A DNA stretch of 64,000 nucleotides from an uncultured Oscillospiraceae bacterium (GTDB taxonomy: Bacteria > Bacillota > Clostridia > Acetivibrionales > DTU013), in contig CAZBEQ010000010.1 in the NCBI GenBank assembly GCA_964490975.1, positions 8,837-72,836 of the forward strand. The letters run 5' to 3'. Below the pieces are notes generated by a model that was given only the letters and a program-made list of their open reading frames with translations, made no database searches and was not told the DNA's origin. The translations under genes and the position numbers were made by a program. Shown here piece by piece: positions 31,399 through 49,797 of this stretch; position 1 is the stretch's first letter; every line of letters starts with the position of its first letter.

Positions 31399-31491
31399 CC
31401 GCCACTGCTCCTGAAAAGCAGAGAAGAGGCGCAAACCTTGAAATTTCAACGTTTATCGCCTCTTTCATATTCTTCAACTGTCAAACTCGGG

Positions 31492-31634
31492 AAATTCTAT
31501 CAAGCACTTTTGCATCTCAAAATATGCTTATTATTTTTATAAACGTATATTAATACCGTTTATCAAAAATGTCAACACGCAGAGTGCTAAACTGGGGATA
31601 ACAGTAACACTGCTCTATCTGACTTTTTGCTATA
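31492..31634. repeat. 143-bp direct repeat, copy 2 (orphan promoter copy followed by a dead start)
   Basis: See copy 1. Downstream of this copy the reading frame stops after 8 codons (VLDRISRV*). Confidence 0.85.
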
Positions 31635-32478
31635 TCTCTGCTGCTTTCGATTGGCACTTCTGCCGGCCGCATCTGATTTTTCGCAGCCATATAGCCACTC
31701 CCAACATAATCAATAAGCTTATGATTCCCGTTGTAGGTTCCATAATAAATGACACATTAGCTTTTAGTTGGATAATGCCGCTTGTAATCATCAGTGTTGT
31801 CACAACCCCATCCTCAATAGCGTGCATCAGCACGCATGGCCATACTGAATTTGTAAGTCTGTATATTTCTCCGAACAAAATCGACCAGATTGTCAAAACA
31901 ACACAGCCCCATGTCACTAACGTAATCCGCTGAGACATGTTCACCAGATCATCCGGCAGGAAAACCATATAGTATGCACTATGCCACAGATTCCAGACAA
32001 GACCTGTTACCAGATAGACCTGCCAATCCTTGCATCTGAAGGCTACAAGCTTTTGCGTAAGATACATCCGCCATGAAAATTCTTCCGAAATATTTTTAAA
32101 GAAATTAGCTCCGACAGAGGAACACATAACTGGTAAAAACAAACCCCAGGAAAACTTACTTTTTTCTATCAGACCTGCCATAAATGCAATTGCCAGTAAA
32201 ATGATCATTATAGCCGGAAAAATTAAAATGGAAAGAGCATACAATTTACCATTCCCTTTGAAATTTGGCTTAATGCTCGAATGCTTCCAATCCTTTTCAA
32301 TCGTTCGTATAATTATTGACAGAAACAGTGGTGTCACGAGCCACACCAAACTTCCCAATGATTCCACTGCCTGCTCTTGCCCGAGTAAATTATTCAATTG
32401 TACTCCAACCCAGCCAATAACAAGAGCCACAATAATAAAAACTATTAAATGTACCTTTTCTCGTTTTTCGTAATTCAT
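31630..32478 (-). CDS. CPBP family intramembrane glutamic endopeptidase (CAAX protease-like)
   Basis: 282 aa and polytopic. EEFSWRMY (the EExxxR motif) and a later H-containing helix (LMHAIED). Confidence 0.8.
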   Translation of the reverse strand: MNYEKREKVHLIVFIIVALVIGWVGVQLNNLLGQEQAVESLGSLVWLVTPLFLSIIIRTIEKDWKHSSIKPNFKGNGKLYALSILIFPAIMIILLAIAFMAGLIEKSKFSWGLFLPVMCSSVGANFFKNISEEFSWRMYLTQKLVAFRCKDWQVYLVTGLVWNLWHSAYYMVFLPDDLVNMSQRITLVTWGCVVLTIWSILFGEIYRLTNSVWPCVLMHAIEDGVVTTLMITSGIIQLKANVSFIMEPTTGIISLLIMLGVAIWLRKIRCGRQKCQSKAAEI

Positions 32479-34212: not shown

Positions 34213-34260
34213 TGGTGAGCCATCGCGGATTCGAACCGCGGACACCTTGATTAAAAGTCA
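34213..34260 (-). repeat. att site: 48-bp duplicate of the 3' half of tRNA-Lys (distal island boundary)
   Basis: TGGTGAGCCATCGCGGATTCGAACCGCGGACACCTTGATTAAAAGTCA is identical to 49641-49688. The flanks diverge on both sides. Confidence 0.88.
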
Positions 34261-34403
34261 TATACTGGCTTTCTTTATGTTGAACACTTTACATTCAGTG
34301 TGTTTGCACCTGTTGCATATGATTTTTATGTAGGTCAGAACCTATGATTATATTGTAGCATACACAAGGAAGGTTATCTACAGACCAAAGAGTATTACAA
34401 AAC

Positions 34404-35174
34404 TTACCTTGGTATTGGGTAACTTCCGATTTTAATTAAACTATTAATAGCATTTTTCATAACTTCAAAATCTGTCAAATGAATAAAGTGACCGCTGTTT
34501 GGAGCTATTATATGTTCAGCATCACTTGACAAAACAAGGTATCTTTTCATAATATCCTGCCAGAGATATTCAACCTTTTTCGCAGTTTGTTCACCCATAT
34601 TTCCATAATACTTTAGCTCTTCAATATAAAAATCACTTGAATGTGTTATAAGCCTAATTGGCATATTCTGTAGTGCTGAAGTATCAATGGCTTTAACTAC
34701 ATCCGCAGTCTCTACACCATTATGAGTTGATGCATATTCAGCAAGTGCAGTTTTATAGGTATTTTTCCTACTCGATGCCTTTAGAAGATACTCTGACGCA
34801 TCATTTAAAAAATTATAATAGTAAAAAGGTGGTGCTTTTTTCAATAAAGGTTTTATGGCAAATCCCAATCCTAGAGATGTTATAATGAGTCCAGCTTTGT
34901 ATGAAATGGTTTTGTCTACCCCGCTTTTTTTAAATTCCTCTGCTGTTAGCTTTTCTCTAAACATATTGTCAAATGGCGTGGCAGGGTCTAAAAGGAGAAG
35001 ACCTTTAACTTTGCTTGGGTATGTGTATGCATACTCCACAGCATATAACCCACCTTGTGAATGACCAATTAATATAAAATCTTTTTCTATGCCTACCAAA
35101 TTGAGTAGTCTATCCAACTCTAAAGCAATATTTCTGGGTGTTCGTTCAAGCGTAGACATAGAACTCAACTTCAT
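34404..35174 (-). CDS. Alpha/beta hydrolase, probably N-terminally truncated
   Basis: Nucleophile elbow GHSQGG and a C-terminal SGHF (catalytic His). Only about 37 aa precede the elbow, and an in-frame stop lies just upstream. Confidence 0.6.
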   Translation of the reverse strand: MKLSSMSTLERTPRNIALELDRLLNLVGIEKDFILIGHSQGGLYAVEYAYTYPSKVKGLLLLDPATPFDNMFREKLTAEEFKKSGVDKTISYKAGLIITSLGLGFAIKPLLKKAPPFYYYNFLNDASEYLLKASSRKNTYKTALAEYASTHNGVETADVVKAIDTSALQNMPIRLITHSSDFYIEELKYYGNMGEQTAKKVEYLWQDIMKRYLVLSSDAEHIIAPNSGHFIHLTDFEVMKNAINSLIKIGSYPIPR

Positions 35175-35475
35175 AAGAGTCTACAGACATGGGTAAAAGC
35201 GGGATTTTACTTTATACAGGTCTTAATGAAATAATTACATAAAATCACTTACCATTTTTGAGCATTTTTCTATAAATAAACCAATTGGAAACATTTTACT
35301 CTCAAGCTCTGAAAAATCAAAACCCACTCTGCAAATGGCTCTGGAACATGAAAACGAAGGTTACCCCTATAGAGATATAATTCTTTATAAAATAGATACT
35401 ATTGGTGAAACTGTTTATTCTTAAGCCGCACAAGAAAAAGAGAAGCGGTTAAGCTTCCCTTAAAATATTTATTCC

Positions 35476-36090
35476 CTATTTAACTTTTATCTTTGTCGGG
35501 CTTTGTAGTTTATTAAACAGATTAAAGCTGTCGGTATTGGACAAGGCTTCAACTCCATAAAGATTTACATATCTGCGGCTCATTTCCAATATACTGTGTC
35601 CCAACTGCCTTTGAAGCTGAAAGTTATTACCACCACTCAAGACCCAGTTTCGGGCAAAGGAATGTCGCAATAGATGTACCGATGTCTTGGATATACCCCT
35701 GCTTCTATTATAATCAGCAATAGCCTGTGACGCTGAATGTGGCAGAAGCTTCTTCCCGACATTATTACTGAAAAGATAATTACCACCTGAACCCTGCCTA
35801 TACCTGATATATTCCTTTAGTATGGAAATTAAAGAGGGCGGGAGCGGTAATATCTGTGCCGATTTATTTTTGGTATGAGAGAGCGTTACCACAGCACTTT
35901 CAAGGTCTACTTCCTGCATCTTGATGTTAACAACAGAACCAATTCTACAGCCTGTAGCAGTGATGAAATTAATCATTACCCAGTTCCGATACTCTGTAAA
36001 ATCACAATGCTTTGTATTAGGCTTTTTAAGGAGTATGGACAGTTCCTGCTCTGTATATATCTCCTTAAGCCAATTTAAGAAAGCAGATGT
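35476..36090 (-). pseudogene. Tyrosine recombinase lacking its N-terminal domain
   Basis: The catalytic region GCRIGS...HLLRHSFARNW...LGHSILEMSRRYVNLY is present. The open frame begins right after a TAG at 36091-36093, with no plausible full-length start. Confidence 0.65.
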
Positions 36091-36244
36091 CTAAACCTTA
36101 AGCAATTGCAGACTATTCCAAAGAAGGTATATTTAATTTTCATAGGAAAAACGGATAGAGAAATAAATGGACATTGTTAATGAAACAATACAAAATCGAA
36201 ATATCTATCAAAACAACATCGTAAGTATATAGAATGGAATTGAA

Positions 36245-36280
36245 TTTAAAAGCCGTAGGAATTAAATATCCTGCGGCTTT
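36245..36280 (-). terminator. Hairpin terminator after the small-ORF pair
   Basis: AAGCCGTAGGA / TCCTGCGGCTT imperfect stem followed by a T-tract on the minus strand. Confidence 0.55.
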
Positions 36281-36291
36281 CAGTTACTTAT

Positions 36292-36630
36292 TTAGTACCA
36301 AGTATGGTCATTTTTTACGTGTAACCACTTCGGGCATCCATAAAATTGGTACTTAAACCTTATATATATACCATTGCCCTTGTCTTTACAATATGCAACT
36401 GCCAACGGTTGAATTTCTCCCCTGGCTTCAAGTCCCCATCCATTCAAATAGTTAATAAAAAACCTATTGAAGATTTCTGCAGAATAAGCATGCATTTGGT
36501 TTAGTTTATTCATGCCGTAAATATTAGCCATGTCAATTCCATAGATTGCTTTTACATCATCTGCCGTTCTGAGTCTATAATCACCAATTCCTAGTTTTTG
36601 ATACTTTTCAGCAATTGTATTATAATCCAA
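36292..36630 (-). CDS. Hypothetical protein (112 aa)
   Basis: ORF only, with ATG and plausible coding composition. It sits 17 nt downstream of the preceding ORF. Confidence 0.5.
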   Translation of the reverse strand: MDYNTIAEKYQKLGIGDYRLRTADDVKAIYGIDMANIYGMNKLNQMHAYSAEIFNRFFINYLNGWGLEARGEIQPLAVAYCKDKGNGIYIRFKYQFYGCPKWLHVKNDHTWY

Positions 36631-36647
36631 AACTAACCTCCTTCTTA

Positions 36648-37040
36648 TTAAACTTGCATTTTTCGTTTACATTTCAGCTTTATATCCATATCTGTATTAA
36701 ATCTTACAAGTATTGCATTATAGGCTATAAACCTTATTTCATCATCATAATGGAAAATATACCTTGGATTTGTGTATTCGTCCGAATAGCCATTTAGCAA
36801 GTTATAACCCAACCTTATCAATATACGTTCCGGAAGGGTAAATTCACCTTTTTGCTTTTTATTTAGAGCGATTACTTGATTTTTTTCGAGATTGTACACT
36901 GTTTCTAACTTTGCATATAACAAATCCGTCGATGATAAAATATAAAACAACGCTTTTCGCTCGCAGTCAGAACGCTCAATTCCCGATTTCACAAGTAAAC
37001 TCACATAACGCATCTTATGTTTTTGGCTTAAAAACTGCAA
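36648..37040 (-). CDS. Hypothetical protein (130 aa; pattern reminiscent of DUF6075, unverified)
   Basis: ORF only. The N-terminal FLSQKHKMRYVSLL and C-terminal IAYNAILVRF resemble my recollection of DUF6075 proteins from Firmicutes mobile elements. Confidence 0.45.
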   Translation of the reverse strand: MQFLSQKHKMRYVSLLVKSGIERSDCERKALFYILSSTDLLYAKLETVYNLEKNQVIALNKKQKGEFTLPERILIRLGYNLLNGYSDEYTNPRYIFHYDDEIRFIAYNAILVRFNTDMDIKLKCKRKMQV

Positions 37041-37385
37041 TGATATGCTCCTTTCATTTTTTTATATTATAGTAGAGTATGTTTCAAATTATTCCATTCT
37101 GATGTTTAGTCCGACATTATTCTAAGAAATTAACAATAAGAATTTAAGAGGTATTGCTGACATATTACACCGGACGGTACGTTGGTAGGATCTGTAATTG
37201 GTGGTGAACCGATGGAGCCGAACTCACAGCAATAGATTAAACTGTGTATGACATACAAGATGAGAGCCTTGCAAAGAGACAGCAAGGTGCGATCTGATTA
37301 TGTAAATTAATGCTAGCAGAGTGGCGGAAGTATTTATGAGTGAGAAAACTTATATAGAGCTGTTCCTACATTCCTATGACAAAAT

Positions 37386-37841
37386 TTATGACTCAATATT
37401 TCGCCTCATCCTGATACATTCAGGTTTCAACATTCCAAAAAGTCTCTTCTTATAGTAGATTATGTAGTTTCCAGCTAATCCAATTTCGGCCTGCTTTACA
37501 TTTCTAAATACTTCAGTTAAAGGAACAAGCGCTTTAGCTGTATCTATTGAAACAACTTGTTTGTTCGTACATGCTTCACACTGATTTGTATTGGGATCAA
37601 TGCACTGTTCACAATACACAAAGCCGCAGCCTTCACATTTCACTGCCTTATGGCAGTTTGTACACGAATACCTCCCACACCAATTGCATTTTTTCGTATG
37701 CTCATAACATGAAGCTGCATGACATTTATCACAAGTGATAGTATCCTCATCACAAAGCGCTTCAGAACATATATGGCAATTCGTATGGTGACCATTGCAA
37801 AAGAGCTTCTTGTATTCCTTACAAGCAGTTGCATCTTCCAC
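37386..37841 (-). CDS. Cys-rich multi-zinc-ribbon protein (151 aa from GTG); start uncertain, possibly 5'-truncated
   Basis: At least 22 Cys in about 95 aa, arranged as CxxC/CxxxxC pairs, then a Cys-poor 55-aa tail. No ATG and no SD are present. The frame stays open 10 codons upstream and encodes another CxxC (NCSICDAVLC). Confidence 0.5.
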   Translation of the reverse strand: MEDATACKEYKKLFCNGHHTNCHICSEALCDEDTITCDKCHAASCYEHTKKCNWCGRYSCTNCHKAVKCEGCGFVYCEQCIDPNTNQCEACTNKQVVSIDTAKALVPLTEVFRNVKQAEIGLAGNYIIYYKKRLFGMLKPECIRMRRNIES

Positions 37842-37869
37842 GCATAATACGGCATCACATATACTGCAG

Positions 37870-37884
37870 TTCTATGTTAATACA
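37870..37884. promoter_or_regulatory. 15-bp palindrome ATACAAATTTTGTAT, related to the operator at 48031-48046
   Basis: Perfect half-sites ATACAAA/TTTGTAT. It abuts a weak -10-like TAGGAT (37883-37888, minus strand), about 30 nt upstream of the Cys-rich ORF. Confidence 0.5.
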
Positions 37885-37963
37885 AATTTTGTATCCTATT
37901 GTTAAAAAATTTGGTTGGCATTGGCAGCCTATCTTATCAAATTAATCCACATGAACATCAAAT

Positions 37964-40900
37964 CTAATTGTTAGTTCCATTCAATCCAATTCTCTTTCGA
38001 ATTTCTGAATCGGCTTTTGGAAGTGCATTGGACAACATTTTATCCGAGATTGCTACAGCATCTGCAGGAATGCGAGAATATGTAGGGCTCCACATAGCTG
38101 GATATACAAAAATATCCCTTCTGGTCCCATCTGCAACAACGTAATGCTTTATCCCATCATCTTCAATTCTAAATTGAGATTTTAACTCATTCAGTGGTGC
38201 CAATAGTTCATGTTGCCTATCGAAAGATAATGGAGAAGGAAGAACAGATCCTTCACACCAATTGAGCAGATCCAATGCTGCAAACCTGTCCAATTTATCA
38301 TGGACTCGCTGATTCCAGAAATGCATTAGACATTCGTGACAGGCACTATCACAATCGGCTCTACATTCAGACAATACCTTTTTGGTTTCTACAAAGAGCT
38401 CCCGTGTCCGATCTGCCAGCGCAGCACAATAACCAGCCCCACTTGATAGACTGTCAAACAGGAAAACATCAATATATGTTTTACCTGCTGCATATCTCAA
38501 CCGATATCCACTTTTGATATCATTAAACTCAATGTCCAGTAAACGTCCACCAGCAAGAATCATTGCTTCTGCAAGGGTTTGACCAGCAGTGCGAATCCAC
38601 ATTCCATCAGGGTTGTCATTGACCAGTAAGGGATTTATGGCAATTTCATACACTACAAGGTCAGTTAAAAACTGATGTCCCAGGTATGTATTAACAATAC
38701 CCGATGAATGGGGGCAGTTATAAATTTTATGTGGATGACGGTAAGGTTTGTCAATCTTTTTTAATTCTTTCTCATCATCTCCAGGAACAGCAGCACCACA
38801 ATCTTTACATACCATAAAGCCCTTTGATTTCGGGCCCTTATTAAGAATAATGAGCGGCTCATCTGACCTTCTTGAATACCTTAGATTTTTAAATTCGGCA
38901 GGCTTAATCATTTCAACATCAGCAGGTGTTATGGAATAACACGGGTCTTCTGCATAAGTCATTTCACTATCGGAATCAATTTCTCGAGAACTTCTACCGC
39001 CTACTGGAGCAAAGCCCCATGGCTTAAGAAGATTTTGCTCCTTAATACTTGCTTGTCCACAGAATGGACAGACATCATGGTGCAGAAGGCCCATCCAATT
39101 ACATGCTCGGTTTCCGCAGTAGAAAAGCTGTCTAAAGTAATCCTTACTACTAAAGAATGGACGTGCAGGATGCTCCTGATTACCAGCACGAAATTTCGAG
39201 TGGAAACTGTATATACCGCCCGACTTATATGTGGTCTTATTGACTACTACCAGTCTGCCGGGAGCATATTCAGTGATAGCAATATCTAAGGCTCTATCCG
39301 GCATTTGCTCTATTTCTGAGCCTTTATAGTTCTCAATATAGAAGCCAACTACATTTTTGGGGAAGGAATAGGTCGGGAAAATTCCGACTTCCAACATTAC
39401 GTCGAGAACACTTTTTTCGGAGTTCTCATCACTCCTATATTCATCTGGAAACGCTTGAACCTTTGTGAATAAATCATCCATCTCTTGGACAATGTGCGCT
39501 TTGTACTTATCAATTTCCATTACCACCCCGGCTGGCAAAAGCTTACTAAGCTCGGATGAGGAGAAATCCTTCTGAGCAATATGTTTCTTAAATTCTTCAT
39601 AGTATGAGTTAAAGAATTCGCAAACGCCAATGTCATCAGCACCTTTGCAGATGGTCCCAAAGTATTCAGAAAAACATATAACATTCAGGTGTCGCGATGT
39701 CAGCTTCATGTTGTTTACATCGATCCAGGGAAGGCGGGGTTCACCGGAAATGATTTTATCTGGGTTATAAAAATAGTAGCTATCATGAGGACGGTTATCA
39801 GTATAAGTCAGAATCGTTGAAATTGCAGCACTTCGACGTCCTGCTCGCCCAGCTCGCTGCTGATAGTTTTCCCGCATTGGAGGAATGTTACGGAGACCAA
39901 CTGCTGTCAGGGAACCGATATCAATACCGACCTCCATAGTAGTTGTACAACTAAGGACATCCACAGGCCTGTCATTGTTAACATGGACATTTTGAAACCG
40001 CATTTCGAAGTCTTCCGTCGTTGACCACGTCTTCTGTCGTTGATCCTTATGGGATAGTTGAGCCGTATGCTCTTCGGTATTGATTCTGGTCATCAGAGCC
40101 TGTGGTTCACCGTGAACCGCCGCAATTACAGGTGATCTCCAGAAGTTAACTCCTCCAAAATTCTTTACTGTCATAAGTTTCGGTATACCCACCCCGCAGT
40201 GTGCGCATTTGCCCCAAAGCATAAAAGGGAAGATTCCGCTACAGCGAGAGCATTTATACCAATCGTGATGCTCACCAAATTGCAATGTCACCATATCTAG
40301 GTTCAAATACTTGTTTGCTGTATCACTCCCTTTTGACAGGAATTTAGCAAGAGCTTCCGCTATAACCTTTATTTGTTCTCCTGTATAATTCTGTGCCTTA
40401 AGCATCCGCTCAATTCTTTGCGGTAATTTTCTGTCATCCTCAACACCCAAACGTTGATAATATGGTGTCACATCACGGCGTACCTTATCTGCAATTTCCG
40501 AGCCCAGCGCATAGGATGAGGTCATAATCTCCATACTCCACGCTGCAAACAATTTCTTGAAATCCTCTATAGAAATACCAATGTCAGCACTTTCAAATAA
40601 CTCGATAATTTCATCGAAGGTTTCATCTATGTCATAAGGCTCTAGCCAGCACATCCCAATATCCGTTAATGAACGGAAGTTACTGCACATCTGCCTGAGG
40701 AGATGCTCATAATATTGCTCTGGAATGGATTTGAACTCAGATTTCTTCGATGCCATCAAATAATTGATAGAGCCACCCTTCTTTTGAAAATACCTTCCCA
40801 TCGCTTCAAGGGCGTCGCGAAGCTCTTGCTCATTACTGCCATAAAAAAACCTTAAATTATTTTCATAGGCAACTTTAAGAAATGCCACGTACAAAAGGTT

Positions 40901-43216
40901 AAGAGTGGGGTCATTATGAGTTTTCGTTGCCCATATCTGCAACTCATTGGCAGCAACAGTCAACGCCTTCTTCATTGCATCTTCATCGGCTGCACGAGTT
41001 AGGTCTTTTGCCAATACTGCGGCCCGCTGGCGGCTATCAGAGAATAGCAACACCTTTCTCCCCTTATTAACAAGGTTTTGAAGTTTTGGGTTCGGCGGTT
41101 GCACATGAAACTGTTCGGACACTAGGTTGAAGAACGGCTCATCGCCTTTTGTGGAGAAGTCAGTAGCTTTGAAATGAGACTTGTTACAGTTGGGACAGGT
41201 CTTAAAGGTCAGAAGATCGGGGCGCCCCTTTATTTCTGCAGTATGATATGCGACATACAGAAAACCATTTTCTCCAGTGTGATCATCATTGTAAAGGCGA
41301 CCTGTCTTGCTATTCAGCCAGGCCACTTCCACCTCATCCTTTGGTTTTGGAAAACTACCATCCTGCGGAATAATGTAATAGTGAACTTCTTTGAAATTTT
41401 CATCGAATTGCGCACCTGTTTGATTCCAGACGAATGGAGTAAGCTTCTCGCTTTTATCACGGTAACCTCTGAAAAATAGAGCACCACAGGTACGTTCGTT
41501 CATCAGTTCATATATCATGCCGCCACAGTTACAGCGCTGATATTGCGTATTCAAATACACCCGTCCGAATCCAAGCATGGGGTTGGTATTAACAGTTTCG
41601 GTACAGTTAGGGTTGGAACAGGCATAAATACCCTGCAATCCACGGAACATCATATGTAATCTTGCTGGAAACAAAACATGCTCGTCCGAATTTTTTGCCA
41701 TCGGAGCGATTGCCAGTAAAACACTTGTTGCTTTCTCGGCAATTGATTGCTCAACATTTGGAAACGTGGATGCTGAAAGTTGTTCAAACCTTGTAGCATG
41801 GCCACGTGATTTGTCCATGATACGGAGCATTGGATCAGAAACAGATAGTTCCCTGTAAAGCCATTGTTCAACCTCTTTCTCTGATGAGAAATCACATTTG
41901 CTACTGAAGCCTGCTAATCTTCCTAACTCCTCCAAGGCTTTAATGCGTTCTGGCCACTCCCCCTGCAGCCTGTCAATGTCAAAATCCTTAAATAAGGACG
42001 GATCAATTTCTTTGCTTGTATAGACAATTTCATCTACCTCGCCGGTGATCAAAGAAAAGGTATCGTGTGAAGGATCCTGCGCACTCAGCTCGCAAGCGAA
42101 TTTCTTAACAGAATCTTCTTTCCCTGAAGGAATACTTGCGCTTGTAAGTATGAATTGAACCCTGTCTCGGCCAATTCCAAGCTTATAAAGGACACGTCTA
42201 ACGAGAAGCGCAACTTCACCACCGGAGGATCCCCGATACATATGTGCTTCATCTATGATAAACAGTAGTTTTTCTGAGCTCTTTTCTAGCCATTCTTTTG
42301 TCTTTGACCATATACCCTGCTCAATCGGCCGCATAAGCATATATTCTAACATAGAATAGTTCGTGATCAATATATCCGGACAGGACTGATGCATCTCATG
42401 GCGCATAATCAATTCCGCGTCATTCGAATCTGTGTATGGCTGAACATTAGTACGAAGTTGTTCGATAAAAGCTTCCAAGTTATGCTTTGACGGATATTTC
42501 CCCAGATCGACAAGTTGAGCCTTTATCTCATCGCTTTGTTGAACCAAATCCCTTTCTAGAGTATCAGCTAGACCTCTATTTTGGTCAAGATTAGGCCTTC
42601 CTGGATAAGGCGTTCTGCCTGTGTACATACCAAACTGCGGGAAACGCCTGTCAGGTGCTATTTCAGATAAGAACTCATGAAATCCATACTGATCTTGTCG
42701 ATTTCCAATCATCCTGCGAAGTCTACCCAGTTGGTCAGAAACCAATGCATTCATGGGATAAAGCATGATTGCCCGCACGCCGCGCACTTTCCATGAGTCG
42801 GGAGATTGAACAGCTTCCCTGACTATTTTGCTTACCATGGGCCACATAAAGCATTCTGTCTTACCTGAACCTGTACCGGTTGCTATGAACAAATCCCGAC
42901 CTTCATAAAAATCCTCAAGTGCCTTTACTTGGTGCTGATAGGGGTGAGGGAATACACCCAGACCTTTTTCTGACATAGTAGTCAGAATTTCTTTTAGCCC
43001 ATTTTCAAGAGAACTATTCTGAATTCCGTTTTTACACAGCTTGTACGACACACTGGCTTCTATGTATGGTTCCTGATAAAGAATTTTATTTTCCTGGATT
43101 TCAGTTTCGCAAGCCTTTCGTAATTCGTCATTCTTACCTAGATAATCCGTATTGATATAATCCCTGAATCTATTCTTTAGCGCTTCATGTGTGCTTTTAA
43201 CACCATACTTATCCAT
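37964..43216 (-). CDS. Giant SF2 DEXH helicase with zinc-ribbon insertions and a DUF1998-like C-terminal domain (MrfA/DruE-like architecture)
   Basis: 1750 aa. Motif I ATGTGSGKT (42857-42883), motif II DEAH (42242-42253), motif VI QQRAGRAGRR (about 39833-39862). C-terminal cluster CRADCDSACHECLMHFWNQRVHDKLDR (about 38284-38366). RBS GAGGAGG lies inside the end of the upstream gene. Confidence 0.9.
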   Translation of the reverse strand: MDKYGVKSTHEALKNRFRDYINTDYLGKNDELRKACETEIQENKILYQEPYIEASVSYKLCKNGIQNSSLENGLKEILTTMSEKGLGVFPHPYQHQVKALEDFYEGRDLFIATGTGSGKTECFMWPMVSKIVREAVQSPDSWKVRGVRAIMLYPMNALVSDQLGRLRRMIGNRQDQYGFHEFLSEIAPDRRFPQFGMYTGRTPYPGRPNLDQNRGLADTLERDLVQQSDEIKAQLVDLGKYPSKHNLEAFIEQLRTNVQPYTDSNDAELIMRHEMHQSCPDILITNYSMLEYMLMRPIEQGIWSKTKEWLEKSSEKLLFIIDEAHMYRGSSGGEVALLVRRVLYKLGIGRDRVQFILTSASIPSGKEDSVKKFACELSAQDPSHDTFSLITGEVDEIVYTSKEIDPSLFKDFDIDRLQGEWPERIKALEELGRLAGFSSKCDFSSEKEVEQWLYRELSVSDPMLRIMDKSRGHATRFEQLSASTFPNVEQSIAEKATSVLLAIAPMAKNSDEHVLFPARLHMMFRGLQGIYACSNPNCTETVNTNPMLGFGRVYLNTQYQRCNCGGMIYELMNERTCGALFFRGYRDKSEKLTPFVWNQTGAQFDENFKEVHYYIIPQDGSFPKPKDEVEVAWLNSKTGRLYNDDHTGENGFLYVAYHTAEIKGRPDLLTFKTCPNCNKSHFKATDFSTKGDEPFFNLVSEQFHVQPPNPKLQNLVNKGRKVLLFSDSRQRAAVLAKDLTRAADEDAMKKALTVAANELQIWATKTHNDPTLNLLYVAFLKVAYENNLRFFYGSNEQELRDALEAMGRYFQKKGGSINYLMASKKSEFKSIPEQYYEHLLRQMCSNFRSLTDIGMCWLEPYDIDETFDEIIELFESADIGISIEDFKKLFAAWSMEIMTSSYALGSEIADKVRRDVTPYYQRLGVEDDRKLPQRIERMLKAQNYTGEQIKVIAEALAKFLSKGSDTANKYLNLDMVTLQFGEHHDWYKCSRCSGIFPFMLWGKCAHCGVGIPKLMTVKNFGGVNFWRSPVIAAVHGEPQALMTRINTEEHTAQLSHKDQRQKTWSTTEDFEMRFQNVHVNNDRPVDVLSCTTTMEVGIDIGSLTAVGLRNIPPMRENYQQRAGRAGRRSAAISTILTYTDNRPHDSYYFYNPDKIISGEPRLPWIDVNNMKLTSRHLNVICFSEYFGTICKGADDIGVCEFFNSYYEEFKKHIAQKDFSSSELSKLLPAGVVMEIDKYKAHIVQEMDDLFTKVQAFPDEYRSDENSEKSVLDVMLEVGIFPTYSFPKNVVGFYIENYKGSEIEQMPDRALDIAITEYAPGRLVVVNKTTYKSGGIYSFHSKFRAGNQEHPARPFFSSKDYFRQLFYCGNRACNWMGLLHHDVCPFCGQASIKEQNLLKPWGFAPVGGRSSREIDSDSEMTYAEDPCYSITPADVEMIKPAEFKNLRYSRRSDEPLIILNKGPKSKGFMVCKDCGAAVPGDDEKELKKIDKPYRHPHKIYNCPHSSGIVNTYLGHQFLTDLVVYEIAINPLLVNDNPDGMWIRTAGQTLAEAMILAGGRLLDIEFNDIKSGYRLRYAAGKTYIDVFLFDSLSSGAGYCAALADRTRELFVETKKVLSECRADCDSACHECLMHFWNQRVHDKLDRFAALDLLNWCEGSVLPSPLSFDRQHELLAPLNELKSQFRIEDDGIKHYVVADGTRRDIFVYPAMWSPTYSRIPADAVAISDKMLSNALPKADSEIRKRIGLNGTNN

Positions 43217-43217
43217 G

Positions 43218-44225
43218 TCATACCTCCTCTATCTTAACTCCCATTCCTTCAATATGAGCCTTGACATAGGGCCAAATGAAATTAGGCATATCCCATTCCC
43301 CTCTGTCAACAATCGATCTATGTGGCCACGCAAATGTTTCAAGTATGATACGTTCTTTATCTGGCAGATAGGTTTTTATTAATAGCTTCACATGGTCATC
43401 ATATTCACATTTTTCTACTGGTACCGGGCTTTGGGCAATTGAACGCAGAGCAAACATGATACGTCTGTGTTCCCCCATCTTCTGCAAGTGTGTATCTACT
43501 TTGTGATAAGAAATAGCTCCATGCTCTTCCTTTTCGAGGAAATATTCGTATGCCCCATGGTGTAGCGGATGTCGTATTAGTATGACTGAATTGAATCTTC
43601 GACCTCTTCTCGAAGTCCAACAGGTATAGTTGCTGACTGAATCCATTTCTGCTTCAAAGTACTCCGTTCTATCATCTATACAATTTCCGGCCTTCCACCA
43701 AGCATTTTTAACATACTCCCGAAACCATTCAACTGTAGATACGATAGGTGATTTCAAATCATCCTTTATGGATGGAGCAGCAAGAGCGATCCCAGTATAA
43801 ATAAATCCAGTTTCCTTAAATGAACCAATAAGCTGCCGTACTCCATAACCAAGCTCGATTTCTTGCTTGATAGCGAGTCCAATATTTGTATCATATCCGA
43901 CATTCACCAAATCGCCATTTTGAAGTAGCCGTCGTCTGATGATATCGATTGGATCATCTTCATCTTTTATCTCGAACCATGCAACCGATTGTGGGAAGCG
44001 TAACAGCATTTCATTAAGAATATGGGAACATTTTTCGAAAATATGCTTTCTGCTCACTCCCTGCGTTGTCTTATCTGTTATGGATTGATCCACCGCAGCA
44101 GCTTTGACCCAACAAGACATGGCTGAATACAATATGCGATTGATATATTGTACTTCTGATTCATTACAGAATCTCTTTATATTAAGATCTCTGGCCATTG
44201 TTGCGATCATTTCATGAACTATCAT
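43218..44225 (-). CDS. Hypothetical protein (335 aa), third gene of the helicase operon
   Basis: Long ORF. Its stop lies 1 nt before the helicase ATG. I could recognise no motif. Confidence 0.8.
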   Translation of the reverse strand: MIVHEMIATMARDLNIKRFCNESEVQYINRILYSAMSCWVKAAAVDQSITDKTTQGVSRKHIFEKCSHILNEMLLRFPQSVAWFEIKDEDDPIDIIRRRLLQNGDLVNVGYDTNIGLAIKQEIELGYGVRQLIGSFKETGFIYTGIALAAPSIKDDLKSPIVSTVEWFREYVKNAWWKAGNCIDDRTEYFEAEMDSVSNYTCWTSRRGRRFNSVILIRHPLHHGAYEYFLEKEEHGAISYHKVDTHLQKMGEHRRIMFALRSIAQSPVPVEKCEYDDHVKLLIKTYLPDKERIILETFAWPHRSIVDRGEWDMPNFIWPYVKAHIEGMGVKIEEV

Positions 44226-44236
44226 ATCATTATTCT

Positions 44237-46333
44237 CTACAGATATTGGGCAAGAAGGTCAGTATATTTTTCATTCACTCCCAGTGCCTCTAAGATATCT
44301 GTAAGCCTATCCTCCTTGTGCCTTGCTTTTGCATTAACGCATAACTGTAGTAATACAAGCCAGTCGGATTTAATATCGCTATTTATATCAACCATGAGCT
44401 TTGCACACAATACAGCCGCAGTGTTGCTTAGGATACCTGCCTCTAGCAAGGGCTTCAGTAATTTTTTCTTCTCTTCTATTTCATTCTCTTTATAAAAACG
44501 CTCAAAGGGAAATCCTTTTACTGTAGCAGATTTCATTATCTCATTCTCACAATAATCAAAAGCCAAATCTATATCAAGGAATAACGCACTGGACCATACT
44601 GCCGAAGATAGCATACCTGCATCCACACCATCAGCAGCTATCAATAGAATTTTGTTGTTACACGAATCCTTTATCGCATGGAATACATTTTCACTAAAGC
44701 CGTCAAATACACCTGTCAAATACACAACTGGGCCATAAACATTTCTAATTCTATCTGTAATACCCGCCAGATCCGTATAACCCAAAGGAATATTGACAAT
44801 AGCTGCGCCTTCTCCGCAGAAGAGAACAGATAAGCAATTAGCAATAGACAATCCGTTACTTGATACAATAAGAGGCCTGCTATTCAAAGCGCAATGTACG
44901 ATGAGTTGTGCTATTTCATAGGCTTTGACTCTATATCCACATAACGCAAGGTTCTCAGCCAATTCTTCTTCTAAACTTTCTTTATCAATGATTTCAGTAT
45001 TAGAGCCTTCAATGCACTTTGGAATGCTTGTATACGAATGAATCGGAGAGCTACTTTTCTCTGTACCTCCGATACTGCGAACCAATGAGCTGATAGCAAC
45101 GTGATGAACAATTTTATCGGAGAAACCCCTAAGTTCGTTTTCGATATCAGCATTAATCTGTTCTAGTTTTCCCTTAGCTATCATTTGGTCGTTCTGAATC
45201 TGCTGGATTTCATTTTCAAGTTCTACTCGGCGCTTATCTGCCTGTTCTGCTGAGGCAATAATCGTATCACGCCTTAGGGATTCCGTAGCGACTTCTCGAC
45301 TAAACTTTTCAATTTCTGCAAGTAGTGCTTCCTTCTCCGTATTCTTTTCAGAAAGCCATTGCCCTTTAGCAATATCAACGCATTTCTGCCTGACATCAAC
45401 TATTTTGAAAAGGTTCTGGGATATAATACGGTCAGCATCAGTATCATTCAAGAGTGTTTTGCAGATTTCATCAGCATACCTGGGTAAAACCTCTCCTAGC
45501 TGAGTCAGATCATAACCAGTAACTTGGAAGTAATTTTGCACTTGATCGTAATCACATATGATTTCTCTAATACATATTGAGATATTCTGGATATCATGAT
45601 CAGATAATTGTAACATAGCTTTCTTCTGCTTTAAGCACTTAGAAATGTAGTGAGGCACATATCTCTGTAAATCAAGTAATGGAAAATTGCATATTTTTTT
45701 AGGCAAGTCCGTGTAGCGATAAAAGTATCTGGTCGGAACCTTTCCACCGTCAGCATCTGTGATCAAAGAGTTATCTGTATCAAGTACATCCGGTTTATCT
45801 ATATAGTATTCATCTAGGTAATGGATTGAGTGCAGCATATCCGACATACTTGAATGTATCTTATAAATAGAACCTGTATGTATCATGTTCTTTTTGGAGC
45901 AATGAAGAGCTACATATTGCGACGAAATGCTGCCTATAATGATAAGCAGCTCGTCTCCCGCATTTTTATCAATCATGATCCCATCGAATAGAACCTCCCG
46001 AATCCTACTCTGATCTGTAATATCAATTGTGTTTAATTCTTGCGGAAATATCACCTCGTAAACATTGGCGGGATATCTAGTTGATATGGTTCGATTACTA
46101 CCATCCTCCTTGAATCCCCACTCACGGATCACTGCCATGTTTGCTGCGGCATCTTTAGGCAATGCTCCAATAATTCTGGGATAGGTCAAGTCCTCTTCAC
46201 TGACAGAAAAAAATGTAGCTGGTGTTAAGCTACGTGTATCGATGTCATAATCAGCAATACGAAAAAACAAATATTGACCTAACATATTCTTATTTGGATA
46301 TGTTACACACAAGGAATATCTTTTTTCAGACAT
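44237..46333 (-). CDS. Hypothetical protein (698 aa) with a central coiled coil, second gene of the helicase operon
   Basis: The ATG directly abuts the stop of the upstream gene. A heptad-rich segment is present (EKEALLAEIEKFSREV...RRVELENEIQQIQNDQMIAKGKLEQINADIENEL). No Walker A was seen. Confidence 0.8.
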   Translation of the reverse strand: MSEKRYSLCVTYPNKNMLGQYLFFRIADYDIDTRSLTPATFFSVSEEDLTYPRIIGALPKDAAANMAVIREWGFKEDGSNRTISTRYPANVYEVIFPQELNTIDITDQSRIREVLFDGIMIDKNAGDELLIIIGSISSQYVALHCSKKNMIHTGSIYKIHSSMSDMLHSIHYLDEYYIDKPDVLDTDNSLITDADGGKVPTRYFYRYTDLPKKICNFPLLDLQRYVPHYISKCLKQKKAMLQLSDHDIQNISICIREIICDYDQVQNYFQVTGYDLTQLGEVLPRYADEICKTLLNDTDADRIISQNLFKIVDVRQKCVDIAKGQWLSEKNTEKEALLAEIEKFSREVATESLRRDTIIASAEQADKRRVELENEIQQIQNDQMIAKGKLEQINADIENELRGFSDKIVHHVAISSLVRSIGGTEKSSSPIHSYTSIPKCIEGSNTEIIDKESLEEELAENLALCGYRVKAYEIAQLIVHCALNSRPLIVSSNGLSIANCLSVLFCGEGAAIVNIPLGYTDLAGITDRIRNVYGPVVYLTGVFDGFSENVFHAIKDSCNNKILLIAADGVDAGMLSSAVWSSALFLDIDLAFDYCENEIMKSATVKGFPFERFYKENEIEEKKKLLKPLLEAGILSNTAAVLCAKLMVDINSDIKSDWLVLLQLCVNAKARHKEDRLTDILEALGVNEKYTDLLAQYL

Positions 46334-47944
46334 TTATACCATCCCCCTAATATCTGCCAGGTATCTTAAGGCCCCTGTATGCATATTGCCGCAATTGATC
46401 ATATTCTTAAGTACGCTGGTAAACTCTGTATATTCATGTTCTATCATTAACTTTACATATTGGCGTACCCATCCAGGAATCGGCACTTCGGTTCCTTTCG
46501 CGCTCGATAGAAGTCCCTTCGCCAAGACATGATCTTCGAAAATATCAACAGAACTTTCTGGCTTTTTAAAAGATATACCAAATATCTTTCTTGACTCGAC
46601 ATAAATATCGAGGTTATCATGAATGTTTAAATCCGTTATACTTACTGTCTGAGCATCACGAAAAGAAATATGCTTGTATTGCTCCCTCCTATTCTTATGA
46701 TACAATTCCGCCTTGGCGTTCAATGAAAGGCTTATACCACCTTCTATTACACTAGTCGGTAGAGGCAAACAAAAATCCATTGCATTTCCTTCCTTGTCCA
46801 CTACTGAAAGCGAGTAGCAATTCTTTGATGAAGTTAATAGCCTCTTTCTATATATACTTTCAACCCCCACATATTTTCTGTCTACTGAAGCTATGATTTG
46901 GGGTCCATAAAACAGTAAGGCTACTGAATAGTTTCCACTTCCATCACTTTCTACTTGGGCAGTCGATACACTCGCTCCATTGTATGTATAAACTTTGGGA
47001 ATATCATTACCACTTATAGCAGCGCAGAATATTTTTGCCGCTTGCAGTACAGGAACCAATCCTTCGTTTTCGGCAACAGGAGGCCAGAGTGTAATCAACT
47101 CAGGAGATTTCTCAAGTAACCATACTCCAAATATGGATTTCAAGTAGTTGTTGATCCCTGCAAACCTTGACGGATTAGTGGTTGAAGCATTTATTCGAAT
47201 CACATAAACGTTATACAAATAATTATCAAGATACATAGTACCAGCAATACGATTATTGATTTCGGGATAGGACGGTGGGGGCCTTCGTGTTATCAAGAAA
47301 TACTCCTTTTCAGTCGTGATACAATCGCCACGCCTGATCTTCTTTCCACCTGATTCTGTATAGGTAAAAATAGCACTTTCATTTTGAAAGCCGTCAGCAT
47401 AATCAGACCATACCGCTCGTAGCTTCGAAGAGACTGCTGACTCAGAATAGTTTATCGAATAATTCTGCCCATTTGGCGGTATAAAGTCAACCGGAACTAG
47501 AGTTGTCTGATCCTCATAGAAGTTCGTTCGTGTTATTGGTATCAATCGTTCTGTTCTACCATGAGAAACTCCATTGCTGATCTTTATTTGAACCTTGTCT
47601 TCAAAAGCTCGTTGAAAAAGAACCTCCCCCAGAGAAGGAAAGCCAAAATATAGCTTGAATGAGCTTTCAGAATTACATTTGAGATAAAGCGGTAGACCTA
47701 CCCGTTCATAAAGAGTCAAACCCGATCTTCCATCGACCCGTTTATCGCATTCCGGTGATGCTTGCGAGCGGTTGTGATGGCGGAAATAGGCAGTAGTATC
47801 AACTCTTTCAACAAGAGTAACAGTCTCATTGCACTCAGGGCAGCTAAACCGTCCAGTACGAAAACAATGCTTATCTTGAACTATATCAGAGGCGGATACT
47901 TCGCGCTGCTTGCCGATCTCATAGTTATCGATTGCATATAGCAT
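46334..47944 (-). CDS. Hypothetical protein with an N-terminal CoiA-like zinc finger, first gene of the helicase operon
   Basis: CPECNETVTLVERVDTTAYFRHHNRSQASPEC resembles the CxxC...HF(A/R)H...C element of CoiA-type proteins. The ATG at 47942-47944 is preceded by GGGAGA. The track ORF begins at a TTG at 48001. Confidence 0.75.
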   Translation of the reverse strand: MLYAIDNYEIGKQREVSASDIVQDKHCFRTGRFSCPECNETVTLVERVDTTAYFRHHNRSQASPECDKRVDGRSGLTLYERVGLPLYLKCNSESSFKLYFGFPSLGEVLFQRAFEDKVQIKISNGVSHGRTERLIPITRTNFYEDQTTLVPVDFIPPNGQNYSINYSESAVSSKLRAVWSDYADGFQNESAIFTYTESGGKKIRRGDCITTEKEYFLITRRPPPSYPEINNRIAGTMYLDNYLYNVYVIRINASTTNPSRFAGINNYLKSIFGVWLLEKSPELITLWPPVAENEGLVPVLQAAKIFCAAISGNDIPKVYTYNGASVSTAQVESDGSGNYSVALLFYGPQIIASVDRKYVGVESIYRKRLLTSSKNCYSLSVVDKEGNAMDFCLPLPTSVIEGGISLSLNAKAELYHKNRREQYKHISFRDAQTVSITDLNIHDNLDIYVESRKIFGISFKKPESSVDIFEDHVLAKGLLSSAKGTEVPIPGWVRQYVKLMIEHEYTEFTSVLKNMINCGNMHTGALRYLADIRGMV

Positions 47945-48030
47945 TGTATGTCTCCCACAATAAAAGCTCTCAAATATAGTAACCACGATTTTTTGTATCA
48001 ATCGTAATGATTTTTACAGTAATGGTGGAA

Positions 48031-48046
48031 TTACAAATATTTGTAA
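48031..48046. promoter_or_regulatory. 16-bp perfect palindrome TTACAAATATTTGTAA (candidate operator)
   Basis: Lies 4 nt downstream of the predicted -10 of the operon promoter. Confidence 0.55.
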
Positions 48047-48050
48047 CATA

Positions 48051-48079
48051 ATTCTACCCTTCTTTCTGAAATCTTTCAA
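48051..48079 (-). promoter_or_regulatory. Candidate SigA-type promoter of the four-gene operon
   Basis: On the minus strand: TTGAAA (48074-48079), a 17-nt spacer, TAGAAT (48051-48056). Confidence 0.5.
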
Positions 48080-48522
48080 CATTCGCGCAGAATTTGTTAC
48101 AATAGATTGGTCTTGAACCAAATGAAGAGAAGTGAGTTTGCTCACTTCCCTCTATCTGGCTTTCTCCATTTCACTTTAAAATCATTATTTTTTATCTGAT
48201 ACTATAAACTATATTCTGCTACTAGCTCTATTTTTGAAGCATCCTATACACTATAAGTGCAACATCAACACGTTTTGCAGGCTTTGTACTATCTAGCTCC
48301 ATGCCTTCTGTCATATAATTTTCTTTTAAGTATTTTAGATAATTTTCCTCTGCGTTTTACTATTATATTATTACGGGTCTGCTTGTATTTTCTCATCAAC
48401 AATAAAAGCTTTTGATACTATTTTTGCCCACTGACCATTGGTTAAGGTATCCTTTGGCCCTAAATTCTCTTTGAATTAAATAACTATATAGTGATTACTT
48501 ACCTGTACCAGAATTCAGAGGT

Positions 48523-49533
48523 TTATATCTTTATCCGATCAATTAGCGATAGACTTTTATCTTTGATATGTACAATTGTACTGGCAAGATGAACATAATT
48601 GTTCAATACCGAGAAACTCTCGTGTCCAGTACTGAGTCTTAGGCTAAAAATATCTCCGCCTGCGGCGAGATACATAGTGCAATATGTATGTCTGAGTAGG
48701 TGCGGGTATATTTTTGTTATCCCTGTTTTTCCCCGTAGCCGCCGAAATAATTGTTTTATTGTTGCCTGAGTGATTGCCGTGCCATCCTCCTTCAAAAATA
48801 AGCTTTCAACCTTTACGCTGGCTGGCTCCGGCCTTTCTTGATTGACATACCTGAATATCATCTTCTGCATGTTAATTCCGAAACTTATAAATCGTTCCTT
48901 ATTACCCTTTCCCAAAACTTTCAAGGTGTTCTGATTAAGCCTAACATTAGCAAGCTTCAGTTTTGTAACTTCCTCAAGTCTGAGTCCACACTCAATCATA
49001 ATTGAGATAATTACCAGGTCTCGAAGATGGTTTGTCTTCTTGCTATCAAGATATTTTAAAATAGTATGTATTTCTTCTTCTGTTAAAATCTCAATAGCAG
49101 GTGCTGTAGCCCTCGGGAGTTTAATTTCAGATGAAACAGTCCCATTCAGATAGCCTTCATCTTCCATCCATGCCGTCCAAGCCTTTAGTGCCCTTATATA
49201 TGTTTGTACCGACTTTGAGGTTAATTGCCCATCAGATTCGATGTGTTGGGTTTTAGCCCACTTTTTAGCGGTCTTAAGGTATAGAATATACTTTTTGATT
49301 TGTTCCTTGGTAATGCTGGATGTGTCTGTATCCAAACACTGTTCTTCAAGATAGGATATAAATCTGTCAATGTTGCCTTTGTAGTACTCCACTGTGGCCT
49401 TTGAGTTCCCTCGGCAGCTTTGCTCAAACAGAAACCCATCCTTCATTTTTTCCAGACTGAATACATGAATAGCATCCTTCCCGCAATCCATAAAACCTTT
49501 TCCTGAGTTGTTTTGATTCCTTGATTTGTTCAT
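48523..49533 (-). CDS. Site-specific tyrosine integrase
   Basis: N-terminal SAM-like core-binding domain (KATVEYYKGNIDRFISYL) and a catalytic domain with GLRLEE, HLLRHTYCTMYL and LNNYVH. The ATG at 49531-49533 is preceded by GGAGG. The longer track ORF reads through two tRNA genes. Confidence 0.9.
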   Translation of the reverse strand: MNKSRNQNNSGKGFMDCGKDAIHVFSLEKMKDGFLFEQSCRGNSKATVEYYKGNIDRFISYLEEQCLDTDTSSITKEQIKKYILYLKTAKKWAKTQHIESDGQLTSKSVQTYIRALKAWTAWMEDEGYLNGTVSSEIKLPRATAPAIEILTEEEIHTILKYLDSKKTNHLRDLVIISIMIECGLRLEEVTKLKLANVRLNQNTLKVLGKGNKERFISFGINMQKMIFRYVNQERPEPASVKVESLFLKEDGTAITQATIKQLFRRLRGKTGITKIYPHLLRHTYCTMYLAAGGDIFSLRLSTGHESFSVLNNYVHLASTIVHIKDKSLSLIDRIKI

Positions 49534-49563
49534 ATTACGCCTCCGAAATTTATTCATGAGCGA

Positions 49564-49595
49564 AAAATCAAGGTGCCTCAAAATCAAGGTGCCTG
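49564..49595. repeat. Two tandem 16-nt repeats AAAATCAAGGTGCCT(C/G) between int and att
   Basis: Exact 15/16 duplication. AATCAAGGTG also occurs inverted inside the att core (tRNA anticodon stem region, about 49671-49684). Confidence 0.8.
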
Positions 49596-49607
49596 GTCCA
49601 AGACAAT

Positions 49608-49640
49608 AAAAAACCCCGTAACCTTTGAGATTACAGGGTT
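49608..49640 (-). terminator. Terminator immediately after tRNA-Lys (island-borne)
   Basis: On the minus strand: AACCCTGTAA...TTACGGGGTT stem (one G-U pair) followed by TTTTTT. Confidence 0.7.
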
Positions 49641-49716
49641 TGGTGAGCCATCGCGGATTCGAACCGCGGACACCTTGATTAAAAGTCAAGTGCTCTGCCA
49701 ACTGAGCTAATGGCCC
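49641..49716 (-). tRNA. tRNA-Lys (TTT); its 3' 48 nt form the proximal att repeat
   Basis: The reverse complement reads GGGCCATTAGCTCAGTTGGCAGAGCACTTGACTTTTAATCAAGGTGTCCGCGGTTCGAATCCGCGATGGCTCACCA. Confidence 0.92.
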
Positions 49717-49720
49717 GTAC

Positions 49721-49797
49721 TGGCTGGGATGGCTGGACTCGAACCAGCGAGATGCAGGAGTCAAAGTCCTGTGCCTTACCGGCTTGGCTACATCCCA
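49721..49797 (-). tRNA. tRNA-Gln (TTG)
   Basis: The reverse complement reads TGGGATGTAGCCAAGCCGGTAAGGCACAGGACTTTGACTCCTG...GGTTCGAGTCCAGCCATCCCAGCCA. Confidence 0.88.

Follow-up and report, generated by a model that had tools for sequence, protein, structure and literature searches.

The operon and its four products

We analysed a 64-kb stretch of DNA from an uncultured clostridial bacterium (hereafter, the window), in which four open reading frames (ORFs) on the minus strand form a tightly coupled operon related to the defence system Druantia. In the order of transcription, these are gene 1 (46334-48001, 555 amino acids (aa) when read from a TTG), gene 2 (44237-46333, 698 aa), gene 3 (43218-44225, 335 aa), and gene 4 (37964-43216, 1750 aa). 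The stop codon of gene 1 (46334-46336) lies directly against the ATG of gene 2 at 46333, 11 nucleotides (nt) separate genes 2 and 3 (44226-44236), and a single nucleotide separates genes 3 and 4 (43217). The ORF coordinates thus bear out the sizes and junctions given in an earlier reading of the letters alone (the sequence-only reading). The true start of gene 1 is almost certainly the ATG at 47944, which gives a protein of 536 aa (46334-47944), since this codon is preceded by a GGGAGA ribosome-binding site, yields the family-consensus N-terminus, and is the start of an identical database protein (P0195).

A promoter and an operator had also been proposed upstream of gene 1. A promoter-like sequence, TTGAAA-17-TAGAAT (48079-48051, minus strand), is indeed suitably placed, as it precedes the ATG of gene 1 by about 100 nt, and is the best-placed match. 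However, our promoter and terminator scan returned 32 promoter-like matches, compared with 32.5 expected from shuffled sequence, and therefore gave no enrichment that would make this match more than a positional candidate. Both promoter and operator are plausible by position alone.

Gene 4 encodes a DruE protein. It matches the PADLOC DruE1 model with E = 0 and 1883 bits, residues 1-1742 aligning with profile positions 2-1773 of 1776, while the DruE2, DruE3, and DruE4 models score 538-622 bits, about a third of the DruE1 score (342-538 bits for the DruE3 models), and the DrmA and DpdJ models give local matches only. The protein is a YprA-like superfamily 2 (SF2) helicase in which Pfam recognizes DEAD, Helicase_C, and MZB/DUF1998 domains, with the Walker A lysine at K119, a DEAH motif at residues 322-325, and a C-terminal MZB/DUF1998 zinc module at residues 1549-1630. 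Both K119 and D322/E323 are invariant across the DruE alignment of relatives. Compared with the DruE proteins of druA-containing loci, the window protein is 32-34% identical over its full length. The YjiV_N Pfam family also matches this DruE (in the copy of the operon labelled L087, described below), as it does the DruE proteins of two related metagenomic loci, L001 and L002. In Escherichia coli K-12 (L086, 4574135-4579337), the yjiV pseudogene directly adjoins mcrBC, a link of Druantia to McrBC neighbourhoods.

The products of genes 1 to 3 are less readily recognized. When the four proteins were compared with the PADLOC models, a check named beforehand, the match was of high confidence for gene 4, weak for gene 3, and marginal for gene 1, and there was none for gene 2. 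As canonical references, we used the druA-containing loci of Pseudomonas putida pKF715A (L003) and Ralstonia pUW163a (L004); the five P. putida proteins score 538-2332 bits against PADLOC DruA1 to DruE1. Family alignments of the three window proteins were then paired by hhalign with the P. putida and Ralstonia proteins, and three mismatched pairings, which gave probabilities of 0.06-1.3%, served as controls.

For gene 3, the PADLOC DruD1 model gives E = 7.7e-19 and 66 bits, and relatives of the protein match DruD1 over its full length with E = 1e-20 to 9e-26. The family aligns with canonical DruD by hhalign at 94.8% probability (E = 5e-8, 252 columns; mismatched control 0.06%). The protein has no Pfam family, no recurrent family emerged from a scan of 48 DruD homologues, and a family-profile search returned no sequence relative in the PDB. 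We considered an McrC-like identity for this protein and do not claim it, as hhalign found no significant similarity to E. coli McrC.

Gene 1 has a weak and partial match to DruB1 (E = 1.5e-8, residues 42-239, 32 bits), its relatives have none, and BLASTP of the window proteins gave no similarity to canonical DruB or DruC. The family alignment nevertheless pairs with canonical DruB at 96.2% probability (E = 2.7e-9, 240 columns; mismatched control 1.3%). The AlphaFold model, for which the alignment was built from database proteins, has a mean predicted local distance difference test score (pLDDT) of 85.8, and predicts an N-terminal CxxC...H...C zinc ribbon, tandem immunoglobulin (Ig)-like beta-sandwiches, and a small C-terminal helical domain. 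By Foldseek, the model resembles Ig-like arrays (LILRB3, leptin receptor, filamin; E = 3e-5 to 1e-3). A family-profile search of the PDB matched Zn-ribbon proteins through the zinc ribbon and nothing else, and PF25164 is recorded on some homologues.

Gene 2 matches no Druantia model, and neither it nor its two closest relatives match DruC1. A word-index search that returned three proteins had suggested a near-unique protein; we reject this, as an exhaustive profile search found 380 representative relatives, some of which match DruC1 at E = 1e-5 to 4e-8, and the apparent rarity is an artefact of divergence. The family pairs with canonical DruC at 93.2% probability (E = 2.9e-7, 201 columns; mismatched control 0.1%), and the match spans the coiled coil and continues into the C-terminal degenerate P-loop region. 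The AlphaFold model (mean pLDDT 84.9) predicts a beta-rich N-terminal domain (residues ~1-220), a helical region, a long helix at residues 312-411 (coiled coil), and a C-terminal alpha/beta domain that is AAA+-like, bears a helical lid, and appears to lack a Walker A motif. Its best Foldseek matches are AAA+ ATPases (ClpC, BchI, RuvB, katanin; E = 2e-3 to 1e-2, probability up to 0.98). A PDB search with the family profile returned coiled-coil noise only, and a Pfam scan of 41 DruC homologues found no recurrent family. An McrB-like reading of gene 2 is consistent with the predicted fold and with the literature discussed below. DruC-like proteins fall into two size classes, of ~650-720 aa and ~880-1030 aa, the longer form carrying an N-terminal extension (for example, L009:6063-8969), and one of the 41 scanned homologues has a Macro domain (E = 4e-31). 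Because of these two size classes and the Macro domain, we suggest that the DruC N-terminus is a swappable sensor module.

The matched pairings, at 93-96%, stand against at most 1.3% for the mismatched ones, and hidden Markov models (HMMs) built from DruA-less loci only retrieve canonical DruB (E = 1.5e-5), DruC (E = 3.7e-9), and DruD (E = 5.4e-6) as the top ORFs in the canonical loci. At the level of profiles, genes 1, 2, and 3 therefore correspond, remotely but specifically, to DruB, DruC, and DruD, and they follow the canonical order. The sequence-only reading had left two possibilities, a Druantia-type system with the order and sizes of druB-druC-druD-druE, or an undescribed system. The DruE1 match and the hhalign pairs favour the former, and the latter is not supported, as the helicase is a full-length DruE1 and each partner matches DruB, DruC, or DruD remotely but specifically.

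Absence of DruA and spread of the four-gene unit

Type I Druantia reportedly consists of druA-druB-druC-druD-druE (Doron et al., 2018). DruA is a DUF4338 protein, and we searched for it with three queries: the DruA of P. putida, that of Ralstonia, and, from a haloarchaeon, a DUF4338 protein of 705 aa. By tblastn, no DruA was found in the 64-kb window save one weak match, at 31973-32173, which we attribute to chance: it covers 69 aa with E = 0.005 in a tiny database, lies outside the island that carries the operon, and is antisense to a CAAX-protease gene. Neither phmmer nor a DruA HMM (E <= 10, 4,178 ORFs) found DruA in 80 related loci, the matches being confined to three DUF4338-bearing control loci, and the Pfam families that recur in 107 upstream ORFs (280 aa or longer) do not include DUF4338. 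The missing DruA pointed out in the sequence-only reading is thus missing from the related loci as well, and its absence is a property of the clade. One of the loci that does carry a DUF4338 protein, on the Halalkaliarchaeum plasmid pAArc-CO (L005, 3374-14415), has the 705-aa protein beside a three-gene operon and on the opposite strand; in this operon, DruE is accompanied by a DruB-like ORF and a 608-aa protein, and no DruC or DruD homologue was recognized.

Relatives were gathered from species-representative genomes with DruE as the anchor. This search gave 215 DruE relatives, of which the best 80 (40-66% identity) were taken with 10-kb flanks, and the metagenomic loci L001 and L002 were added. 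In this set, 75 loci, or 76 once that of the window is counted, contain all four genes, colinear as B-C-D-E; the median distances between neighbouring genes are -4, 1, and -8 nt. A survey of whether the genes co-occur in other genomes had been proposed from the sequence alone, and the answer is that they do, often beside defence genes. The identity of DruE across the DruA-less loci is 40-77%, and, measured against the window proteins, the median identity is 52% for DruE, 31% for DruB, 25% for DruC, and 27% for DruD. Evolution of the accessory proteins is much faster than that of the helicase, as might be expected of an arms race. The hosts are mostly Lachnospiraceae, Oscillospiraceae, and Ruminococcaceae, together with Paenibacillus, Selenomonas, Succinivibrionaceae, Desulfovibrionaceae, Synergistaceae, Butyricimonas, and Methanogenium, a spread across phyla and domains that indicates horizontal transfer.

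The genes next to these loci include many of known defensive or mobile character. The closest relative, L001, lies beside Lamassu LmuA/LmuB and a relaxase. L002 has Mrr, a WYL protein, NERD, and a Dcm-type C5 methyltransferase with an EcoRII-C endonuclease, and GmrSD and type II restriction-modification (R-M) genes also lie beside related loci. A recurrent arrangement is a C5 methyltransferase with a type II endonuclease of a GGNCC family, a co-directional pair upstream of druB, in 17 of the 75 other four-gene loci (L007, L012, L017, L024, L029-L031, L033, and L045 (~2600-4700), and L014, L015, L021, L022, L027, L035, L037, and L053); L014 and L035 are counted with the endonuclease only, at a contig edge. 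The endonuclease is RE_EcoO109I in nine loci and RE_Eco47II in eight, the latter with a helix-turn-helix (HTH)-fused methyltransferase where the contig reaches, and the distance from the end of the endonuclease to druB ranges from a 7-nt overlap to a 51-nt gap. The pair spans different DruE subclades and both DruC size classes. In L001, an RE_EcoO109I gene instead follows druE by 33 nt (L001:18412-19146), and L008 has a methyltransferase only. The pair is absent from the remaining 58 loci and from the window, where we detected no methyltransferase or endonuclease in the 64 kb. As the sequence-only reading had noted, a methyltransferase is thus lacking here, and so, within the island, is a PLD protein.

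In nine loci (L006, L054, L055, L056, L057, L061, L062, L063, and L075), druB is directly preceded, at a distance of 7-85 nt, by a small HTH_26 gene of Cro/C1 type (for example, L054:4377-4610), which encodes 75-88 aa in eight of them and 177 aa in L056. This gene is probably a regulator. In the Eco47II-type loci, the HTH_26 domain is found joined to the methyltransferase. The window contains no HTH_26 ORF.

The tRNA-Lys island

The operon had been described, from the sequence alone, as the cargo of a tRNA-Lys island. The attachment (att) repeats and a tyrosine integrase confirm this, and the boundaries can now be drawn more sharply. A tRNA-Lys (UUU) gene, the integration target, lies at 49641-49716 (minus strand) and is preceded by tRNA-Gln, the two spanning 49641-49797 in the ARAGORN output. 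The 3´ 48 nt of tRNA-Lys (49641-49688) form attL and are repeated with 100% identity at 34213-34260 (attR, minus strand), where ARAGORN called no tRNA. The island therefore extends from 34261 to 49640, a length of 15,380 bp. The integrase gene (48523-49533, minus strand) begins at an ATG at 49533 preceded by a GGAGG ribosome-binding site, and encodes a protein of 336 aa with Pfam matches to Phage_integrase (E = 1.3e-28) and SAM-like N-terminal domains. The guanine plus cytosine content of the island is 0.34-0.44, compared with 0.42-0.48 for the flanks.

Beyond the operon, the island carries an alpha/beta hydrolase gene near attR (34404-35174), a truncated C-terminal fragment of a tyrosine integrase (35476-35976), and three small ORFs, one of which is a DUF6075 gene (36648-37040); the three features with coordinates are all read from the minus strand. 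Possibly the island is a composite that retains what is left of a second, decayed element. Beside four related loci, DUF6076 genes recur. Between the tRNA-Lys terminator and the integrase start, at 49564-49594, the 15-nt sequence AAAATCAAGGTGCCT occurs twice without mismatch, the two copies beginning 16 nt apart; they could be arm-type integrase sites or regulatory sites. Outside the island, a 154-nt direct repeat (31256-31409 and 31492-31645, 90% identity, starts 236 nt apart) is intergenic, with a DUF2087 regulator gene on one side and the CAAX-protease gene on the other.

The identical operon is present in an independent assembly, the Logan contig SRR8925805_127483 (L087), whose 15,438 bp is nearly the length of the island. 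We considered whether this contig might be an excised circle and rejected the idea; the length is most probably due to a break in the assembly at the 48-nt att repeats. The valyl-tRNA synthetase encoded by the host is ~80% identical to Acetivibrio enzymes, in keeping with the Firmicute host assumed in the sequence-only reading.

Interpretation and comparison with known systems

We propose that the locus is a complete and functional, DruA-less variant in the lineage of type I Druantia, druB-druC-druD-druE, and put the probability of this at roughly 0.78. As such, it represents a subtype, so far poorly catalogued, of a defence system already known, and it is carried by a tRNA-Lys integrative island. 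That the locus protects against phage is a prediction, and probably a correct one.

How such a system might work can be sketched, with about even odds that the sketch is right. Its four products would come from one coupled transcript in fixed proportion, and the complex would assemble on DruE. Biochemical work of 2026 showed that the DruE of type III Druantia loads on single-stranded DNA (ssDNA) or forks and unwinds 3´-to-5´ (bioRxiv 10.64898/2026.05.13.724758, 10.64898/2026.05.13.724313). By analogy, the DruE described here would be an ATP-driven motor. On phage DNA that is replicating or has been injected, it would load at exposed ssDNA or at fork junctions and unwind in the same direction. 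The DruC-like protein, with an McrB-like layout and a catalytically dead AAA+ domain, could act as the sensor or adaptor that chooses the DNA to engage, and the DruB-like protein, with its zinc ribbon and Ig-like repeats, as a DNA-binding scaffold. The DruD-like protein is the best remaining effector candidate, and either DruD or a host nuclease would provide the destructive step. The outcome would be direct and non-abortive: phage DNA replication is blocked, or phage DNA is cleared, and the cell survives.

Several observations weigh against a functional type I system. The link of DruB, DruC, and DruD to Druantia rests on remote homology, and their PADLOC scores (32 bits, none, and 66 bits) compare poorly with the 538-902 bits of canonical DruB, DruC, and DruD. 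The AAA+ matches of the gene 2 model are weak (E >= 2e-3), and hhalign of gene 2 against E. coli McrB is non-significant, with the McrB GPPGVGKT motif falling opposite a gap. There is also the matter of the killing step. No nuclease was recognized in the DruB-like or DruC-like protein, the DruD-like protein has no fold recognizable by sequence, and the Vsr-like domain at the C-terminus of type I DruE is predicted to be inactive (Bell et al., 2025; PMC12458937), which leaves this step unexplained. The search for DruA in the host covered the 64-kb window, so a druA gene could be present elsewhere in the genome, and, given the 17 relatives with an R-M pair that is absent here, the window copy could be a reduced form. 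Finally, the case for protection by this or any DruA-less locus is made from sequence.

Other explanations were weighed as well. The four genes might be the residue of a canonical type I system that lost DruA, for example as the island integrated or rearranged, and no longer defends. In canonical loci, druA lies directly upstream of druB, where the window has a 520-nt non-coding gap beside the integrase, and the integrase fragment at 35476-35976 indicates some decay in the island. All four ORFs are intact, however, and retain the family-invariant residues, tblastn found no DruA remnant in the window, and an identical DruA-less layout in 75 other loci, with DruE identities of 40-77%, is not expected of independent decay. 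We consider such decay improbable. A little less doubtful, though still unlikely, is that the functional unit is larger and comprises a C5 methyltransferase, a GGNCC endonuclease, and B-C-D-E, with methylation marking self for the DruC N-terminal domain; the window copy would then have been stripped, and would either rely on a methyltransferase from elsewhere in the host or lack regulation. Type II Druantia comes with a methylase of its own. Type I has been reported to alter N6-methyladenine (m6A) patterns (bioRxiv 10.1101/2024.04.14.589459), the R-M pair abuts druB in 17 of 75 loci across DruE subclades and both DruC size classes, and L001 has RE_EcoO109I close behind druE. On the other hand, the pair is lacking in 58 of the 75 loci and in the window, where neither a methyltransferase nor an endonuclease is detectable, R-M genes are common in defence islands anyway, and both endonuclease families are self-sufficient type II enzymes.

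The two remaining alternatives deny the relationship to type I Druantia itself. A new system that shares only its helicase with Druantia, with partners that are analogous and not homologous, would fit the missing PADLOC DruC match of gene 2, the marginal DruB match of gene 1, and the lack of BLASTP similarity to canonical DruB and DruC. Analogy does not predict, however, that matched hhalign pairs reach 93-96% when mismatched ones stay at or below 1.3%, that gene order and sizes are the same, or that the DruC match passes through the coiled coil into the C-terminal domain, and we regard such a system as very improbable. Scarcely credible is a housekeeping DNA-repair operon of the core genome, of MrfA/YprA type, as the DEAD, Helicase_C, and MZB/DUF1998 core that DruE has in common with MrfA might suggest. 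The protein is a DruE1 family member with fast-evolving accessory proteins, and the operon sits between att repeats with an integrase; related loci have defence-gene neighbours and a patchy distribution across phyla and domains, and we saw no fixed chromosomal synteny. A repair operon of fixed synteny was one of the conditions that the sequence-only reading had named as its own refutation, and the att repeats, the integrase, and the patchy distribution all contradict it.

The family can also be viewed in a wider, more tentative way. It is possible, although we have more doubt than confidence here, that B-C-D-E is the self-sufficient core of type I Druantia and DruA a lineage-specific accessory; the clostridial clade would then be a subtype of its own, with the variable N-terminal domain of the dead-AAA+ DruC as a specificity module and coupling to R-M in about a quarter of the loci. 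Were this the case, a helicase system would be tied to an epigenetic self-mark through a GGNCC cytosine-methylation/restriction pair, and phage DNA could be cleared in Gram-positive anaerobes either without a nuclease or with one supplied by the host. The recurrence of the GGNCC R-M pair suggests, in any event, a possible link between methylation and Druantia targeting.

Several consequences follow for work on these systems. Only type III Druantia has been mechanistically dissected, and type I is potent but opaque. It was reported to be among the broadest-acting systems in E. coli screens and to change m6A patterns (bioRxiv 10.1101/2024.04.14.589459). A widespread DruA-less form suggests that B-C-D-E is a minimal core, and thus offers a smaller construct for reconstitution, while the predicted models of DruB (zinc ribbon and Ig-like repeats) and DruC (reader-like domain, coiled coil, and dead AAA+ domain) are directly testable. 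Annotation with curated models alone would recognize little beyond DruE and perhaps DruD. The widespread form also indicates that present HMM sets miss DruB and DruC in Clostridia; if they do, type I Druantia is probably more frequent in gut and rumen Firmicutes than counts suggest. Hidden diversity of the Druantia family is already in print (PMC12458937); in the searchable literature, we found no description of a DruA-less type I Druantia.

Among known systems, the locus has its closest counterpart in type I Druantia, with which it shares a DruE that matches DruE1 from end to end, positional counterparts of DruB, DruC, and DruD with homology at the profile level, the B-C-D-E order, similar protein sizes, tight coupling, and carriage on mobile elements. 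It differs in that DruA (a DUF4338/GNAT-like protein), a defining component of type I, is absent, DruE is only 32-34% identical, the hosts are mostly Clostridia where the canonical hosts are Proteobacteria, and DruC has an extra or variable N-terminal domain in two size classes. None of the four proteins gave a PADLOC match to the partners that define Druantia II, III, and IV (DruM/F/G, DruH, and DruL/F). Type III Druantia (DruH-DruE) also has a YprA-like DruE motor, and ssDNA or fork loading and directional unwinding are likely shared. However, no DruH is present here, three other accessory proteins stand in its place, and the DruE3 models score only 342-538 bits. In type III, furthermore, the PLD nuclease at the C-terminus of DruE is active, whereas the prediction for the type I C-terminal Vsr-like domain is that it is inactive (PMC12458937).

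The CnuB (McrB-like) homologues of Druantia I and II are described as inactivated and as containing coiled coils, and both types have been placed under the name "Type IV CoCoNuT" (Bell et al., 2025; PMC12458937). In line with this, the gene 2 model predicts a coiled-coil AAA+/McrB-like protein that appears to have lost its nucleotide-binding loop, encoded together with a YprA-like helicase. The differences from Type IV CoCoNuT are that no McrC/CnuC-like nuclease was recognized here and that the similarity of gene 2 to McrB is weak and at the level of fold only. DISARM and MrfA share the SF2 helicase with a DUF1998/MZB zinc module. In the case of DISARM, the likeness goes little further, as local matches to DrmA reach at most 47 bits and fall on the helicase C-terminal domain, and the island has neither a DrmC PLD protein nor a DrmMI/MII methylase. 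Compared with the MrfA repair protein (~750 aa), the 1750-aa DruE is more than twice as long, has no MrfB partner, and is island-borne and patchily distributed.

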